Source of the DNA: Candidatus Woesearchaeota archaeon
Lineage (GTDB): Archaea; Nanobdellota; Nanobdellia; Woesearchaeales; SKGA01
Assembly (NCBI GenBank): GCA_016926395.1
Contig: JAFGOT010000008.1
Coordinates: 1-20,734 of the forward strand
DNA length: 20,734 nt
Reading direction: 5' to 3'
Shown here: piece by piece, positions 10,452 through 20,734 of the stretch
Numbering within the stretch: the stretch's first letter is position 1
Layout: each line of letters begins with the position of its first letter
The notes under the pieces: generated by a model
What the model saw: only the letters and a program-made list of their open reading frames with translations
The model's database searches: none
Told to the model about the DNA's origin: nothing
Position numbers and translations under genes: made by a program

Positions 10452-11282
10452 TTAAAGTACGTTTTTAAAGTGCATTTTAGCAAATTCAGACAAATCCTTA
10501 CCTAGCTCTTTTAGAAGTTTTAAAGCCTCTTCAACGTGAGTTGAGCCTTTTGGAAGAACAAACCCTGCTTCTTTACTCAAACGATTGAATTGTTCAATTC
10601 CATAATATCTTGCCACAATGCTTGCTGCCGCCACAGCCACAAAAAAAGATTCTGCTTTTTGAATCATATAATCTCCTGCTTGACATCCAGGATATTGATC
10701 AACCACTTGTTTTGCTCCAAAATATGTTTTCTTTAACTCAAACCCTACGTGGTTGTGAGCTTCGTTTAGAATTCCAGTTATTGATCTTTGTTTTGTTAAT
10801 TCATTATACTCCTTTGCTTCAATTTCATAGATTACAAATCTTTCTTTGTAGTCTTCAAGTAGTATTTTTGCAATCTTCTCTATTTGAATATCCGTTAGTT
10901 GTTTTGAATCAACAACCCCTAGTTGTTTTAAAGTATCTTCTTCTGATTTTTCAAAATATGCACCAACAACAACTAATCCTCCAAAAGTATCTCCTTTTAG
11001 AGTTTCATCACTTCCTATGCATTTCTCTATTTCTGGAAGTTTTGTATTAAGAACTTGTTTTTTTTCTTTTCCTGGTTGTAAGTTTAAGGCATGGTTGTTT
11101 TCTTTGAATTTATCAAGCAATTCATCACTTCCTTGAACAACCAGTTTTCCTGATGTATAAAGAATAAGTGTTAATCCCTCACCTCTAAAGCGGGCTTTTT
11201 CATATTGGTTTGTACCCGACTCCATTGCGTAAACTTGCGTATTTATGTCGCTTTCTTTTACACCTAAATATACTAGAGTCAT
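10452..11282 (-). CDS. rnhC: Ribonuclease HIII (bacterial-type, with N-terminal TBP-like domain)
   Basis: N-domain LILYTSGKLVVQG. Catalytic domain IGSDETLKGDTFGGLVV, GVVDSKQL, VVDQY, KAES..VAVAAASIVAR, LPKGS and AKMHFKN. Confidence 0.88.
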   Translation of the reverse strand: MTLVYLGVKESDINTQVYAMESGTNQYEKARFRGEGLTLILYTSGKLVVQGSDELLDKFKENNHALNLQPGKEKKQVLNTKLPEIEKCIGSDETLKGDTFGGLVVVGAYFEKSEEDTLKQLGVVDSKQLTDIQIEKIAKILLEDYKERFVIYEIEAKEYNELTKQRSITGILNEAHNHVGFELKKTYFGAKQVVDQYPGCQAGDYMIQKAESFFVAVAAASIVARYYGIEQFNRLSKEAGFVLPKGSTHVEEALKLLKELGKDLSEFAKMHFKNVL

Positions 11283-14548: not shown

Positions 14549-15364
14549 TCATTTCAAATAAGAACTTAGATTTTCTCTTAATTTTTTAGCACTATTGTAA
14601 AGTTTGTCTCGTTCTATAACATTTAGTTTAATATTTTTTATTTGAGAAATCGAACCATCAATTATTTCAAATGGAAAAGACAAACATATTTTATTTATGT
14701 CATAAAAAGCATCCACATAACAAGAAGCATATAAAGTTCCTCGTCTAGAATTAAGTGTATTAAAAAATTTAACAAATTCTAATCCTGCAAAATCATAAGG
14801 AATACCATTAACCCGTACATTTTCAAAAAGTGCGAAGTCAACTCGTTTGGATAAAGCTTCATAATCACTCTTATTTTCTGAATTAAGTAAAGGAATAGCA
14901 TCGCCGTGTAACCCCACACAATCAATATCAAATCCTAAAACTACCGAAAAACGTTTAACATCCAGTTGCATTCCAAAACCAATAACTTCTTTTTCTGGAC
15001 ATTTAATGTCAATGTAATTAACCAATTCATCTACAGGATTTGAAACAACAATTATTTTAGAATCCAATTTGTTTAATAAATCAACATAATCATCAACTAT
15101 AGCAATATTACCCTCTAATTCAGCGTGCCTCAAATCATACGTCGTACCAAGCTTTTGAGTAAGATTTTTTCTTTCCGCATCAGTTATACTAGAGAAAGCT
15201 AGAACAACATAATCGATTTCTAAAGGTAATTCATCATCATTTATTGGATTAAATTCTGTTTCTTTTTTTGATTTTGATATAAAAAATATTTCGTGGTTCT
15301 GCCTTTTTAACTGCTTAGCAATGGCTTGAGCAGTCTTTCCAAATCCAATAAATAATAGTCTCAT
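14549..15364 (-). CDS. Divergent lactate/malate dehydrogenase superfamily protein
   Basis: IGFGKTA Rossmann motif, R..EL..N..I, VVSNPVD, G.G..LD..RF and catalytic GLHGD. Confidence 0.82.
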   Translation of the reverse strand: MRLLFIGFGKTAQAIAKQLKRQNHEIFFISKSKKETEFNPINDDELPLEIDYVVLAFSSITDAERKNLTQKLGTTYDLRHAELEGNIAIVDDYVDLLNKLDSKIIVVSNPVDELVNYIDIKCPEKEVIGFGMQLDVKRFSVVLGFDIDCVGLHGDAIPLLNSENKSDYEALSKRVDFALFENVRVNGIPYDFAGLEFVKFFNTLNSRRGTLYASCYVDAFYDINKICLSFPFEIIDGSISQIKNIKLNVIERDKLYNSAKKLRENLSSYLK

Positions 15365-15427
15365 ATCTGTTCAATTTGAGTCAGTAGTAATAAATCTTTC
15401 TAGAATAATAAAAAAAATAAAAGGAGG

Positions 15428-15463
15428 AAAAAAACGTTAAATTGTAGTTTCCCACAATCTAAC
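15428..15463 (-). terminator. Hairpin plus U7 terminator of the lipoprotein operon
   Basis: GTTAGATTGTGG-GAAA-CTACAATTTAAC forms a 12-bp stem with two G-U pairs and a GNRA loop, followed by G-TTTTTTT. Confidence 0.7.
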
Positions 15464-15483
15464 AAGCATAGACAAATCAGCTA

Positions 15484-16485
15484 TTAACTTAACACACCTA
15501 CATCAGTTATTACTATACTGTCTTGAAGAGTTTCTCCATATCTATAACGCATGTCAACACTCAATAAGTCTTGATAGTAAGTTTTTGCACTTCCAGTACT
15601 TTCAACATTACAAGTTATTGTTCTTGGAGTTCCTTCAAACAAAGTTACTTCTCCTGTTGCTTCATGTCCAGATGATGTAAATCCTGCACACTGTAGGTTT
15701 GCTTCGGATTGTTCGGGTAAGTGAACTTTTACTTCAACTTTGTTTCGGTCTGGGTTTTGTAATGCATAACTACATCCATTATCGCTACCAGCCTTGAATA
15801 CATCACCAGTTCCAACATGTCCTATTTTAATAATTAAAGTAACTTTACTTCCTCCTTGAGGAATCTCATTCATTTCAATTACTTGAACTGGGCCTGCAGA
15901 GTTATAAGGTTTTTTTTGCTCATTTACTTTACAAATTTCTTGTTGTTTTTGATTAACAAGAGCTCCTGTTACATCTCCAACCATACAAATTTGTGTTGTT
16001 GATCTTGTTTCATAATCATAACAAAGATTTAGATTGTATGTTATTGGTGTATCTCCCATTGCATCAGCTTTGTAACTTAATCCTTCAAAGGTAAGTACTG
16101 TTGATTGTCCCGGTTGAATATTTCCGCCAATAATTTTTCTTGCACCCGGCAAAGGAGCATCTAATCTTTGTGTTAGATCTGCTTCAGTGATTCCAAATTG
16201 AGAAGAAGAAATTCCTGATAGTTCTAAGAATAATTCATCTCCTTTGGTTGTATCAATGTCATACTCTCCAACGTTATTTAATCGTAGTTGGATTCCAAAT
16301 GGTGAATTTCCATTATCCAGTATTGCACCAACTTCATTTGGTGGCATTCCGGGTACTTGTTCCATTTCTATTGCCTGAGTTCCTCCAATAAATGGTGCGA
16401 ATACAGGACCATTAGGTGTTTGTTCTCCACACGCAGTTAGGACCAATGCCATTGCTACGAGTGCGATTAGTAAAATTTTTTTCAT
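15484..16485 (-). CDS. Secreted lipoprotein, six-Cys beta-sandwich family paralogue 3 (333 aa, minimal core)
   Basis: MKK, hydrophobic stretch and lipobox LTAC (Cys19). Shared family motifs. SD AGGAGG at 16497-16502. Confidence 0.8.
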   Translation of the reverse strand: MKKILLIALVAMALVLTACGEQTPNGPVFAPFIGGTQAIEMEQVPGMPPNEVGAILDNGNSPFGIQLRLNNVGEYDIDTTKGDELFLELSGISSSQFGITEADLTQRLDAPLPGARKIIGGNIQPGQSTVLTFEGLSYKADAMGDTPITYNLNLCYDYETRSTTQICMVGDVTGALVNQKQQEICKVNEQKKPYNSAGPVQVIEMNEIPQGGSKVTLIIKIGHVGTGDVFKAGSDNGCSYALQNPDRNKVEVKVHLPEQSEANLQCAGFTSSGHEATGEVTLFEGTPRTITCNVESTGSAKTYYQDLLSVDMRYRYGETLQDSIVITDVGVLS

Positions 16486-16503
16486 TTTATTCTTTTCCTC
16501 CTA

Positions 16504-17847
16504 TTAATAAGATTTTTTAACAGTCATTGTTCTTTTCATTGTTTCTGCGTAACCATAAGCAACTTCCACTATTAGTGGTGTTTGGAATGCAGATCCAATT
16601 CTTTGGAAATTATAGTCATAATGACATCTTACTTCTCCATGACCATTATCAAGACGCACTCCATCCCACCTATCAGGCGTACAAGTTAGGTGTTGATTTC
16701 CTATTCTTACATCTGTTAGGTAAACTTTGTTGTAAACTCTTGTTGTCGGTCTTATTGGATAATAAGGACTACACTGTTCTATGTGTGTTGCATCATATAC
16801 TGTTCCGCCGCCCACATTGTCAATGTTAATAACAAATGTTGTTCCTTTGTTTGAAGAATCAACTTGTTCTATTGAAGTTATTTTTACTGGTGCACCAGTT
16901 CCTTTATTGTATGTTATTCTTTGTGGATAACATACTTTTCTTTCTTGACTAAATGGGTCAGGATCAATACAAACTTGCGGTGCAGCATAAGTAGCATATA
17001 AGTAACAATTTGTTACCATTATTGGAACTTCTGCTTGGTCAAGACCTTGTGGGAAGTTTCTTATTTCTCCTCTAAATAAAATAGAGTCTCTTTCTCCACC
17101 AGGATAATCAGCTAAGTCAGGCTTTAATCTATATTCTAAACCATTATACTGTCTAAAGTTAATCCCTTCTAAGTAGATTATCATCCCTCGACCATGATTT
17201 AAGTATTCAAAATTGAAATCATCATCAAATCCTAAAGATAAATGGTCTCCGCCAGGATTAGAGTCATATGCTAAGGAAATTCCGTCTAAGAAATTTGATT
17301 CAACACCAACTAAATCTAGAAAAGGCGATAAGCTATTTACTTTAAATCCCCAATCGTCAGCACTGTTTCGGTGACCTGAAACTCCCATTCCTGCACAATT
17401 CCATGCTCCAGATATACTATTCCAGAAACTTCCACCAACTGCGTTACCTGAGAAGCCTACATCAATCAGGCAATCTCCCCAATCAGCTCCATATTCTATT
17501 ATTGAAAGTGCTTGACCTTCTTCATCATATAATTCAATCATTGAAGGATCGTATCCAGAAATGTATAACGCACCTAGAGTATACGCTGTTCCTTCATTAT
17601 GTAAGTCCACAATTACATCAAATACATTGTCATCTGGAGATGCATCGCTATGATAATACATTCTTGAGGGTGGACTTGAAGGGTCACTAAACATCATCGT
17701 TACTCCTTGTGTCCCCGTATAATAGTTTCTGTTTGGATCAGCAGTTTGTTTTCTACCTGCTCCTGAAAACATATCTCCTGCGCTACACGCGCTTAATGCC
17801 AAAGTTGTAACTAGAAGAATTGCAATAAGTATTTTTGTATATTTCAT
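16504..17847 (-). CDS. Secreted lipoprotein, paralogue 2 (447 aa, core plus about 120-aa insertion); start corrected to ATG 17847
   Basis: Lipobox LSAC (Cys21). SD GAGGTG at 17858-17863. Shared family motifs. Confidence 0.8.
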   Translation of the reverse strand: MKYTKILIAILLVTTLALSACSAGDMFSGAGRKQTADPNRNYYTGTQGVTMMFSDPSSPPSRMYYHSDASPDDNVFDVIVDLHNEGTAYTLGALYISGYDPSMIELYDEEGQALSIIEYGADWGDCLIDVGFSGNAVGGSFWNSISGAWNCAGMGVSGHRNSADDWGFKVNSLSPFLDLVGVESNFLDGISLAYDSNPGGDHLSLGFDDDFNFEYLNHGRGMIIYLEGINFRQYNGLEYRLKPDLADYPGGERDSILFRGEIRNFPQGLDQAEVPIMVTNCYLYATYAAPQVCIDPDPFSQERKVCYPQRITYNKGTGAPVKITSIEQVDSSNKGTTFVINIDNVGGGTVYDATHIEQCSPYYPIRPTTRVYNKVYLTDVRIGNQHLTCTPDRWDGVRLDNGHGEVRCHYDYNFQRIGSAFQTPLIVEVAYGYAETMKRTMTVKKSY

Positions 17848-17888
17848 TAGCTTTTCACACCTCAAGTACTTTTATTTTGTTTTTTTAG

Positions 17889-17904
17889 CTTTATATAGCT
17901 TTTT
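17889..17904 (-). promoter_or_regulatory. Internal promoter for paralogues 2 and 3
   Basis: Minus strand reads AAAAAGC-TATATAAA-G in a 64-nt intergenic gap, implying a TSS near 17866 just before the SD. Confidence 0.6.
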
Positions 17905-17911
17905 ATGATAT

Positions 17912-19540
17912 TTATATATCAGCCGACTCTACCTTCGAACTCGCACCCAATCTATCTTTTACAGCATAACAAAGTTTTTGTTCGTTGTTAGCAGGTATAT
18001 CTACCACATATTGGAATCCCTCATTAGCTAAAACTCCTTTAATTTTGCTCATGTTATCAATATCTAAGCTTCCACAGTTAGTTTTTGAGTCAACAAATTG
18101 ATAGTAACCGTATTCTTCACATCCACATAGTTTTTCCACATAATATTTGTCATCAAAGTCGTTACAAACCCATGTAAATTGTATTGGATTAAGTTTGGTT
18201 CCTAAAATAGTGTGTTTTGAAACAAATGGCTTTCGGTTATTATCTCCTTGAAGACATTCAGGCCAACCACAATATGTCCCTCTCATGCATAAATCGGAAG
18301 AATTGGTTGTGCATAGCCCATCAGCATCATGACAAGAGTCAGGTGTTGAGTAAATACAAGATAAACCACTCCATTGTTGATTGTATGGTAAATCTAGTTT
18401 TTTGACTTTGTCTAAGTAAGTACTATTATGTTTTCCGTAATACTCGCAATTATCTACGCAAGTTTTAGTTTCTTGATCATATGTTTTCCATGCAGCACAA
18501 TAGCTTGGTCCAAGAGGTTTTATCATGGATATTAAATTGTCATCAGCTTGTTTTATGACTACTTCTTTTGAGAACACTTCTGTGTAAAAATATTTTAGAG
18601 TTACTCTAAGAGAGGACATATAGTTTGCTACATTTCCAGGAATTTTTGATTCTGTTAATTGACATTCTATTTTTGTTTCTCCTGCTCTTAGAACAGGTAG
18701 GGAACAATCAAGTTTTTCTTCTCCAAGATATGCATCTATTCTCATCTGATTCGGCTTTGCTTCTTTCATATCACCACAAACATGAGTTACTCCTTTGTTT
18801 GGTATTGTGACCGCATCAAGTAAGCTTTCATTAAAATTGTAAACAAGACCATTTCCTTCATTCTTTACATATATTACAAATCTTGGTTGAACTAGTGTTC
18901 CACGCGGAATCATTTGAACATCTACTGCAGTTATTGCTACAGGAGCTCCTTGTCCTTGTCCATATTTTTTATCTTCTGCTTGACACGCATCAACTCTTAT
19001 GTCTGCTTTTTGGGGGTCAGAATCTATACATATTGCCTCAGCAAATGTTGTTTGGTATGGATAACAAATGTTTAAACCAAAGTCTAAATGAGATGTTTCG
19101 AAGTTAGTTGGAACTTCTTTTGCTCTAAATCTATCAATTGCAAAATAATTTTGTTCTCCACTAGGATAATAGTATGATTTTCCAAAAAGAGATATTATTC
19201 CATCGTTGATATATGAACCTCTATAATATCCTGTTTCTAAATCGGTTATTCTCTCTACTTTTGAACTATCATAAATCAAAGATGCTTTTGCGCTATAATT
19301 TTCTGCTAATGAGAACGCACCTTTATTTGAAATAAACATTTGCACATCAAAGTCGCTAGTTTCAAACATTTCCGATGGTGGAGCTTGGTCTAAATAATTA
19401 ACTACCAATCCTTCATTTCCTACATAAAAGTTTTCTGTTGCAGCCCTATTTATTTTTCCAGGCGAGACTGCAGGCATAGTACATGAAGATGATGCTAAAA
19501 GCAATAATATAAAGATGATGAACAGATATTTTCTTATCAT
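17912..19540 (-). CDS. Secreted lipoprotein, paralogue 1 (542 aa, core plus Cys-rich C-terminal extension)
   Basis: Signal peptide ending ASSSC (Cys20). Shared family motifs. 14 further Cys in residues 331-542. Confidence 0.78.
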   Translation of the reverse strand: MIRKYLFIIFILLLLASSSCTMPAVSPGKINRAATENFYVGNEGLVVNYLDQAPPSEMFETSDFDVQMFISNKGAFSLAENYSAKASLIYDSSKVERITDLETGYYRGSYINDGIISLFGKSYYYPSGEQNYFAIDRFRAKEVPTNFETSHLDFGLNICYPYQTTFAEAICIDSDPQKADIRVDACQAEDKKYGQGQGAPVAITAVDVQMIPRGTLVQPRFVIYVKNEGNGLVYNFNESLLDAVTIPNKGVTHVCGDMKEAKPNQMRIDAYLGEEKLDCSLPVLRAGETKIECQLTESKIPGNVANYMSSLRVTLKYFYTEVFSKEVVIKQADDNLISMIKPLGPSYCAAWKTYDQETKTCVDNCEYYGKHNSTYLDKVKKLDLPYNQQWSGLSCIYSTPDSCHDADGLCTTNSSDLCMRGTYCGWPECLQGDNNRKPFVSKHTILGTKLNPIQFTWVCNDFDDKYYVEKLCGCEEYGYYQFVDSKTNCGSLDIDNMSKIKGVLANEGFQYVVDIPANNEQKLCYAVKDRLGASSKVESADI

Positions 19541-19541
19541 T

Positions 19542-20734
19542 TTAGATCACCTGAATTGGATTTTCGTATATGTGTTTTTGTTCATAGTCATACATCACGT
19601 TAAGTATTATTGATTCAGAGGACCATGCATTTGTTGGAACAAATTTATCTACATATTGTTCTTGCGCAAATATTTGACAATCAATTAATTCTTTTAAATC
19701 AACATTAAAACTGGATGAATTTGCTTCTGCTAACCATCGGTCGCCAACTTTGTTTATAGGGATTTTTTCTCCATTGTTTATTCCACTACAAGATATTTCA
19801 AGTCCTTCAGGCATTGAGAAACTTAGCGCTCTTATTGATTGAACTTCTCCTTCTAAATCTTGTGAAGATTGTTTTAGTTCAAATGTTAAATAAGATAATG
19901 GTCTTTCTGGCAAAGTATTTCTATCAACTATTAATGGATCAACATAAATCCATTGCCTATCAGCATTCTTATCATTTGCTGGATGAATAACCACAGGACC
20001 CGAACTAGCGATTATTTTTGGTTCGCCACCAATATAGTCTTTTACAGATTTATATTTTCCAGTATCAACAAAATTTTGATACAAAATATTTGATTGTTCA
20101 TAAGACATAATTCTAAGAGGCAACACAACCGAAGAATTATGACGATAATAAGATAAAATATCTATTTTGTATGACCCTCTTGGTAAATTGTCAAAAGTGC
20201 ATTCTACCCTAGGATAAAGAGTTGGAAGTAAGTCATCAGAACCCATTATCGGTCTTTGCATATCAAATGATTCAGGGTTTGTTTTTCCAGAATACTTATT
20301 CGCCATACATTCTGTTCGAAGCGTTGTTGGTTGGAATACCTTGCCCTCAAAATCAATTAGCATCGTTACTCGTTCACCTTCTTGATACGTTTGTTTTAAT
20401 GATCTAACATCAGATATTTTTACCCCTATGTATTCTGCAGTCTCTTCTTGGGGGGCAGTATTAATGTCTTCTCCACGCCCCGCATTCATAGAGTCTTCTA
20501 CCCAAGACATTATTCTGTCAATTAAATCTGCTTTTTCAACAGCAATCGCTGCTTCTGTTTGTAATTGGTCTTGTCGTGCTTGAATTTTTTCTGTGTTTTG
20601 AAATGTTCCAATCATATAAGGAACCGATACCACAAGTAAAGTTATCACTGCAAATATACCTATTGCTTTTCCTGATAAAACTCCACCAAAGTGTAAAGTA
20701 AACAAAAGCATAAAAAATAACAATATTATTTTGA
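19542..20734 (-). CDS. Membrane-anchored exported beta-rich protein, 5'-partial (frame open to the window edge)
   Basis: Two hydrophobic segments, a helical stalk, then a beta-rich region with SSGPVVI, C..C pairs and a terminal IILNVMYDY. No in-frame stop upstream of 20723. The stop is 1 nt from the next ATG. Confidence 0.72.
   Translation of the reverse strand, partial: KIILLFFMLLFTLHFGGVLSGKAIGIFAVITLLVVSVPYMIGTFQNTEKIQARQDQLQTEAAIAVEKADLIDRIMSWVEDSMNAGRGEDINTAPQEETAEYIGVKISDVRSLKQTYQEGERVTMLIDFEGKVFQPTTLRTECMANKYSGKTNPESFDMQRPIMGSDDLLPTLYPRVECTFDNLPRGSYKIDILSYYRHNSSVVLPLRIMSYEQSNILYQNFVDTGKYKSVKDYIGGEPKIIASSGPVVIHPANDKNADRQWIYVDPLIVDRNTLPERPLSYLTFELKQSSQDLEGEVQSIRALSFSMPEGLEISCSGINNGEKIPINKVGDRWLAEANSSSFNVDLKELIDCQIFAQEQYVDKFVPTNAWSSESIILNVMYDYEQKHIYENPIQVI

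Follow-up and report, generated by a model that had tools for sequence, protein, structure and literature searches.

The window analysed here is an entire contig (C13, 20,734 bp) of a Candidatus Woesearchaeota genome (G000; 1.02 Mb, 40 contigs, 82.5% complete, ~32% G+C). Between 15484 and 20734, on the minus strand, it carries four closely packed open reading frames (ORFs), P0004, P0003, P0002 and P0001 in the direction of reading, with gaps of 1, 64 and 18 bp. A preliminary description of the window had proposed that P0001 to P0003 are paralogous lipobox proteins, that P0004 is a membrane-anchored relative of them, and that the four form an envelope or host-contact apparatus. Few uncultured archaea are as widespread as the Woesearchaeales. 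The questions raised by this locus are what the four genes belong to, whether their products are parts of one assembly, and what such an assembly might do.

Y-Z-Pa-Pb-Pc is an operon of five genes, of which the window holds the 3' four-fifths; P0004 is part of Z, and P0003, P0002 and P0001 are Pa, Pb and Pc, respectively. The unit is therefore one of five genes and not of four as described before, the fifth gene, Y, being located on another contig of G000, C15 (Table 1). The N-terminal parts of Z that are missing from the window open C15 and are colinear with the 780-aa Z of a congener (G127, same genus). This conserved operon encodes five membrane-anchored extracytoplasmic proteins from new families, comprising four copies of one fold and Y, which resembles carbohydrate-binding modules (CBMs). 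There is about an even chance that the five proteins are the subunits of one fixed complex at the cell surface, whose role is to dock onto the walls of foreign, bacterial cells. No paper on the operon was found in a literature search.

The gene order Y-Z-P..P was found in 62 of 71 loci of related genomes (24/31 and 38/40), and the clustering noticed in the single window is thus a conserved one. The operon is usually flanked by Pelota (or topoisomerase VI, Topo VI) on one side and by the replication factor C small subunit (RFC-S) and a PRC barrel protein on the other. In sister orders of the class the operon is shortened to Y-Z-P-P or Y-P. In some lineages the operon is broken up: at loci L040 (G147) and L042 (G020) only two P genes lie beside RFC-S, and Y is found 20–27 kb away on the same contig. 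Among the neighbours that had been envisaged for the operon, no VirB4/HerA-type or type IV pilus-type ATPase was seen in or beside it at the loci inspected, nor was any known channel family, and S-layer family genes were likewise absent beside it. A protein with a pilin-type signal, Y on C15, belongs to the operon. No transporter gene occurs in or beside the operon at any of the 71 loci.

A search of 1.84 billion proteins with the P profile retrieved 3,917 clusters (50% identity), 1,788 of them at E <=1e-30. All named hits are annotated as 'hypothetical protein' of Woesearchaeota, Nanoarchaeota or Nanoarchaeia, in agreement with the origin suggested for the window, and Atlas neighbours of P are from Woesearchaeota or Nanobdellota. 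With P0002 as a single query, 141 of the 150 genomes drawn from the order gave a match. Across the phylum 301 genomes were sampled: P was detected by its profile in 276 (>90%) and Y in 280, and at least 14, most of them from families f140 and f136, have neither. The genomes tallied include five flagged as unpublished (G111, G120, G131, G324 and G325), on which no statement about a locus or an individual genome is based. Judged by these hits, the operon appears to be confined to this phylum of archaea, i.e. to Woesearchaeales and its sister orders.

P0001, P0002 and P0003 are true paralogues as judged by BLASTP, which gave E values of 4e-9 for P0001/P0002, 1e-5 for P0001/P0003 and 4e-13 for P0002/P0003. 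Conservation was assessed in an alignment of 49 sequences, consisting of P0001 homologues and paralogues of other genomes (P0001 numbering). The lipobox cysteine C19 is invariant, as are the core cysteines C167, C185, C266 and C292, and C155 and C238 are conserved in at least 90% of the sequences. Residues N71, G73, Y156, Y158, T160, P199, G225, G227, Y314 and Y316 are invariant or at least 90% conserved. The ordered motifs and the six core cysteines that had been recognised in the three window proteins match these positions.

When the N-termini of 89 P members from 31 loci were read by eye, all 89 showed a signal peptide with a lipobox-like xxxC end; a lipobox script run on the same N-termini classified 51 as strict, 14 as relaxed and 14 as other, and left 10 undetected. 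The P family thus has the signal peptide of lipobox lipoproteins, with a non-canonical SSSC in P0003, and its members are predicted lipoproteins. The tether following the lipobox is short, ~15 residues. The same signal peptide, with a lipobox of the [LVI][ASTVI][GAS]C type and an invariant cysteine, is found in archaeal lipoproteins such as the Haloferax volcanii AliA/AliB substrates, and lipoproteins are predicted to be prevalent in DPANN archaea (PMC12462473). The likeness to the AliA/AliB substrates concerns only the type of anchor, predicted in P, whereas the P double beta-sandwich has no named relative.

A typical P family member has 300–350 aa, and two of the window proteins are longer. 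P0002 includes an insertion of ~120 aa with its own cysteine pair between the two core halves, and the family hidden Markov model hits it in two pieces, at ORF residues 11–115 and 256–452. The insertion is common to a subset of p2 orthologues (G127, G096, G006 and G060). P0003 has a cysteine-rich C-terminal tail of ~200 aa, found elsewhere only in the same-genus orthologue. A comparison of the tail, the insertion and a cysteine-rich insert of Y revealed no mutual relation. The add-ons were correctly described before (none in P0001, an insertion in P0002, a tail in P0003), but they are lineage-specific decorations and not, as had been thought, the source of the non-equivalence of the subunits.

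Non-equivalence is indicated by the phylogeny of the family. In a quick maximum-likelihood tree built from the 75 P proteins of 25 loci with three copies, the sequences sort by gene position: those of the P0001 type form one clade (25/25, 100% support), those of the P0002 type another (25/25, 87%), and those of the P0003 type a fast-evolving grade. Since the tree sorts by gene position, the triplication of P appears to be older than the order, with gene order and identity of the copies kept since. All three orthogroups have been retained, in an unchanged order, in at least 25 families. Three ancient orthogroups in a fixed order are what non-redundant subunits would show, and the idea of non-equivalent paralogous subunits is supported in this form.

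An AlphaFold2 model of P0001, built with the 49-sequence alignment, is all-beta and two-domain (predicted local distance difference test score 91, predicted template modelling score 0.85), which fits the two beta-sandwich domains proposed earlier. Two long strands, 146–169 and 303–327, bear the CYxYxT and YxY motifs. Foldseek and VIA matched the model to generic immunoglobulin (Ig)-like sandwiches, i.e. integrin calf, complement MG, transglutaminase, HAP2 and Fsx1 domain III, at Z-scores of no more than 7.8 and template modelling scores (TM-scores) of ~0.2. A fusexin/HAP2 identity of P0001 was considered and dropped, as such values indicate a common fold and not kinship.

Searches of Pfam and NCBIfam found no family for the four window proteins or for the Y and Z orthologues, the sole signals being sub-threshold CBM-like matches on Y and signal-peptide noise. 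A match to the bindosome protein BasC (E 0.077) was rejected as a chance hit of the latter kind. PDB sequence profiles gave nothing below E 0.1 for P and Y. In CARDB and DUF11 Ig-like domains, a beta-sandwich is combined with a strand motif of the V-x-N-x-G type that also occurs in both P core halves; however, P0001–P0004 gave no match to PF07705 (CARDB) or PF01345 (DUF11) even at E <=1, these domains are Atlas structural neighbours of P at TM-scores of only 0.31–0.33, and the six-cysteine pattern and the two long YxY strands spanning the two-domain core are peculiar to P. Nor does P resemble ABC-type solute-binding lipoproteins, its model being all-beta and not two-lobed alpha/beta, and transporter genes being absent from the loci. 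Hence P represents, as far as these database comparisons go, a new unnamed family, as the preliminary description had supposed.

Z was not detected by hmmsearch with the P family (no significant hit). When the ectodomains of 24 Z proteins were compared with the P alignment by hhalign, a match with a probability of 72%, an E value of 3.5e-5 and a score of 46.1 over 191 columns was obtained, as compared with scores of 9.7–16.6 for 17 reversed or column-shuffled controls. The result was unchanged when the window's own sequence was left out. The motifs paired in the alignment are FxFxT/CYxYxT, GPI/GPV and NxWxG/NVGxG. Because the profile–profile score is far above the controls, Z is assigned as a distant transmembrane-anchored relative of the second P domain, and thus as a fourth copy of the P fold. 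The relationship claimed for the upstream membrane protein was therefore recovered, at the profile level only. According to hhalign, Y is unrelated to P and to Z. The Atlas model of P0004 is closest to ~300-aa hypothetical proteins of Aenigmatarchaeota (TM-score 0.63–0.65 by target), and look-alikes of the Z ectodomain were found in Aenigmatarchaeota and Parvarchaeota. These model comparisons provide a lead that the fold of the Z ectodomain may extend to other DPANN phyla.

In this order Z is polytopic, with 3–8 predicted transmembrane segments and a charged, coiled-coil-like cytoplasmic N-terminus. In the sister orders it has a single transmembrane segment, and the polytopic part is therefore not ancestral. 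Z is the fastest-evolving member of the operon: between G000 and G127, identity is 78–83% for RFC and Topo VI, with values of 78% for the former and 82% for the latter, 53% for Y, 51/46/37% for the P proteins and 25% for Z. Such a gradient (housekeeping > Y > P > Z) is typical of exposed, partner-facing proteins.

All Y orthologues open with [KR][GA](Q). A brief spacer rich in G/A leads into a hydrophobic helix, in which one Tyr is invariant, and LFLPPE(E/D)R and a linker of acidic residues come next. Canonical pilin-like ORFs of G000 share the [KR][GA]Q motif, and Y has the features of a class III signal peptide, i.e. [KR][GA] and then a hydrophobic helix, both in the N-terminal ~30 residues. 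Elsewhere in G000 there are a prepilin peptidase (Peptidase_A24) and two ATPase-plus-platform sets (T2SSE, T2SSF). Y thus shares the class III-type motif and the hydrophobic helix with archaeal type IV pilin-like and bindosome binding proteins, the latter of which carry a pilin-type signal (PMC13705601). It differs from them in the G/A-rich spacer, in an ectodomain of at least ~350 aa and in the absence of ATPase or platform genes next to the operon.

The AlphaFold model of Y is confident at residues 62–330 and 491–560 and shows tandem jelly rolls. Its structural matches are PNGase F (Z-score 11.9), BcsB (11.6), and CBM35, CBM6 and GH35 C-terminal domains (8–9). They agree with the Pfam matches to CBM_35 and CBM-like families, which are weak and below the cut-off; a PDB-profile match to a CBM35 module has an E value of 0.14. 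As in the BcsB/PNGase F/CBM35 type, two consecutive galactose-binding-like jelly rolls are found in a membrane-anchored extracytoplasmic protein (Z-scores 11–12), but the identity is 4–17%, Y does not have the flavodoxin-like domains of BcsB, and its N-terminal anchor is pilin-like. The insert at residues 332–490 is cysteine-rich and poorly modelled. Among Y homologues, a ~560-aa class with the insert is common and stands beside a ~400-aa class. The insert contains a repeated C-G-x-x-D-G-x-C-P ... D-K-D-C-C ... W-C motif and resembles repeats of two giant ORFs of G000 (C38:19188-24785 and C9:30103-32145).

The nature of the target is suggested by additional domains of Z. Of 67 Z orthologues scanned with Pfam, 13 (19%; 5/28 and 8/39) carry a murein hydrolase domain, which belongs to the SLT family in eight, Peptidase_M23 in two, and Amidase_2, Glucosaminidase and NlpC/P60 in one each. 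In the four orthologues with domain coordinates, it is located near the C-terminus, beyond approximately residue 680. Since five mechanistically different peptidoglycan hydrolases were grafted on one scaffold, it is argued that the Z ectodomain works at a murein wall. Host contact, as proposed for the cluster, thereby gains indirect support, whereas the secretion or contact channel that had been proposed along with it finds none in the operon, where neither an ATPase gene nor a recognisable channel was seen.

No Mur ligase and no MraY were found in G000, which is 82.5% complete. Among five hydrolase-bearing genomes, none has more than one Mur-ligase-like ORF, a Mur_ligase_M ORF being present in three and absent from the other two. 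On these findings, the wall in question is most likely foreign. Lytic transglycosylase domains on extracellular archaeal proteins of the same lineages were reported by Castelle et al. 2021, who found them on giant proteins (fam00969), read as serving cell–cell interaction or defence, and described Module 98, a group of 51 families, most of them unknown, that are restricted to Woesearchaeota and Pacearchaeota (PMC8204110). In contrast to fam00969, the hydrolase here is an optional C-terminal add-on to an operon member of ~600–1100 aa and not part of a 3000-aa giant. Elsewhere in G000, SLT-domain ORFs are found at C6:14693-15040 and within a 1,369-aa ORF at C15:61361-65467. At a distance of ~2 kb from the latter ORF, and on the same contig as Y, is a cluster of pilin-like ORFs whose N-termini show [KR][GA]Q (C15:67457-75723), and the region C15:61361-75723 is possibly a trans-acting muralytic or pilus system.

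In the docking complex favoured here, the five proteins would assemble close to the membrane, Y would bind glycan strands, and the archaeon would thereby be docked onto the murein wall of a bacterium. The wall would be opened locally where Z carries a hydrolase. In G000, with its hydrolase-free Z, lysis would be absent or would occur in trans via the SLT-domain ORFs on C6 and C15. More specifically, Y-Z-Pa-Pb-Pc may encode an attachment organelle peculiar to the phylum, in which lipid- and pilin-anchored proteins form a heteropentameric docking complex that binds, and in many lineages breaches, the peptidoglycan of bacterial partners or prey. This further step is put forward tentatively, and at present it is doubtful.

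Several observations weigh against docking on a bacterial wall. Neither P0004 nor the same-genus Z has a hydrolase domain in Pfam, and 81% of the sampled Z orthologues have no Pfam-recognised one. CBM-like and Ig-like folds are generic scaffolds, and the best Z-score of P0001, 7.8, is at background level. The spacer of Y sets it apart from the canonical pilins of G000, and the operon does not adjoin type IV pilus machinery. Calls of absence in G000 are weak at the completeness given above. Finally, a set of genes present almost everywhere in single copy, among housekeeping genes, would suit a structural role in the envelope equally well.

Such a role is the first alternative to be considered. 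The proteins would form a membrane-proximal, S-layer-like coat or anchor that serves the integrity of the archaeon's own cell, and the hydrolase fusions would be secondary, lineage-specific decorations. The single-copy, near-universal occurrence of the operon in synteny with housekeeping genes, the lipid and transmembrane anchors, and all-beta Ig-like/jelly-roll ectodomains with conserved cysteines, as in many archaeal S-layer proteins, are in line with this explanation, and the operon-free lineages f140 and f136 could have another coat. However, P is small (~33 kDa) with very short tethers, and CARDB-domain proteins encoded on C19 of G000 (614–1283 aa) are more conventional S-layer candidates. 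S_layer_N (PF05123) was not found in G000, and the operon proteins have no Pfam or NCBIfam S-layer match. Moreover, a coat that serves only its owner would not readily account for five independent fusions with murein hydrolases. An envelope module is thus regarded as rather unlikely.

The hydrolase fusions on Z are also compatible with a system harvesting glycan or peptidoglycan, a nutrient-scavenging 'utilisome' with the logic of the Sulfolobus bindosome or Sus-like systems, in which polymer captured by Y is cleaved by hydrolases and the fragments are taken up. A CBM-like Y with a pilin-type signal resembles the bindosome binding proteins (PMC13705601), and external amino sugars are needed by reduced genomes. 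This explanation is distinctly unlikely given that an import gene is found at 0/71 loci and that P0001 is all-beta and does not have the alpha/beta fold of solute-binding proteins.

It is more improbable still that the genes are merely co-transcribed and encode independent surface lipoproteins, e.g. redundant adhesins, that form no fixed complex. The variation of add-ons between lineages and the separation of Y from the P genes in a few genomes (G147, G020) would be accounted for. Redundant adhesins would be expected to turn over, whereas the three orthogroups persist in their order across the families, and Y and P are present or absent largely in the same genomes.

A scaffold that remodels the archaeon's own murein-like or pseudomurein-like wall, in the manner of bacterial lipoprotein-regulated autolysins, would likewise explain the hydrolases on Z, and the Mur_ligase_M ORF in three of five hydrolase-bearing genomes could be cited in its favour. 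One ligase-like ORF does not come near to a pathway, even that is missing from two of the hydrolase-bearing genomes, and neither Mur ligase nor MraY was found in G000, which makes this explanation highly improbable. There is a similarly slight chance that the operon encodes an episymbiont secretion or cytoplasmic-bridge channel, for which the polytopic Z with its coiled-coil-like N-terminus in this order would be suited, since the locus has no ATPase or known channel family and Z has a single transmembrane segment in the sister orders.

If the operon does encode an attachment organelle, bacteria and not archaea would be the principal hosts of a very abundant uncultured group. As a near-universal, lineage-specific surface set of five proteins, it offers concrete targets for metaproteomics, antibody or cryo-electron tomography labelling, and binding assays. 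The five murein-hydrolase families fused to one member are a testable pointer to a physical interaction between archaeon and bacterium. The P family provides well-modelled, predicted archaeal lipoproteins for the study of lipidation outside haloarchaea.

Table 1. Operon genes and associated signals in G000; coordinates given without a contig refer to the window (C13).
Feature	Coordinates	Strand	Description
P0001	15484-16485	-	333 aa; last operon gene; orthogroup p3 (Pc); lipobox LTAC; six core Cys; no add-on
P0002	16504-17847	-	447 aa from ATG at 17847 (453 aa from upstream TTG); orthogroup p2 (Pb); lipobox LSAC
P0003	17912-19540	-	542 aa; orthogroup p1 (Pa), fastest-evolving of the three P; lipobox-like SSSC; core, residues 1-334
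P0004	19542-20732	-	C-terminal 396 aa of Z; 5'-open, runs off contig end at 20734; two transmembrane segments and ~350-aa ectodomain
Z, continuation	G000:C15:3-434	-	rest of the gene leaving C13
Z, N-terminal part	C15:431-1240	-	separate 269-aa ORF; coiled-coil-like stretch and transmembrane segments
Y	G000:C15:1251-2933		fifth gene; 560 aa; followed by Topo VI A and B
Hairpin and long T-run	15425-15464	-	immediately 3' of the P0001 stop codon; consensus scan; likely transcript end

The hairpin and T-run that follow P0001 are likely to mark the end of the transcript. The consensus scan found four terminator-like sites, as compared with a mean of 2.4 in shuffles, i.e. no excess over shuffled sequence. 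Z of G000 is split in two ORFs by an ATGA stop/start overlap, and that of G127 is a single ORF; the split could be natural or a sequencing frameshift. Approximately 30–50 residues of Z are missing in the gap between C15 and C13.

The CARDB-domain proteins on C19 are the products of three neighbouring large ORFs of 880, 614 and 1,283 aa (G000:C19:1780-17694) and are S-layer or adhesin candidates. Further genes of C13 are archaeal housekeeping genes, encoding tRNA-splicing endonuclease, FEN1, SMC, NMD3, the PRC barrel protein and RFC-S. Between RFC-S and the operon, a 271-aa protein (14549-15364, minus strand) gave weak matches to F420_oxidored and to the LDH/MDH C-terminal domain; it is absent from the same position in most related loci. 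The window also encodes an RNase HII-family protein (10452-11282, minus strand) with an N-terminal DUF3378 match, a domain that is typical of the N-terminus of bacterial RNase HIII and unusual in an archaeon.

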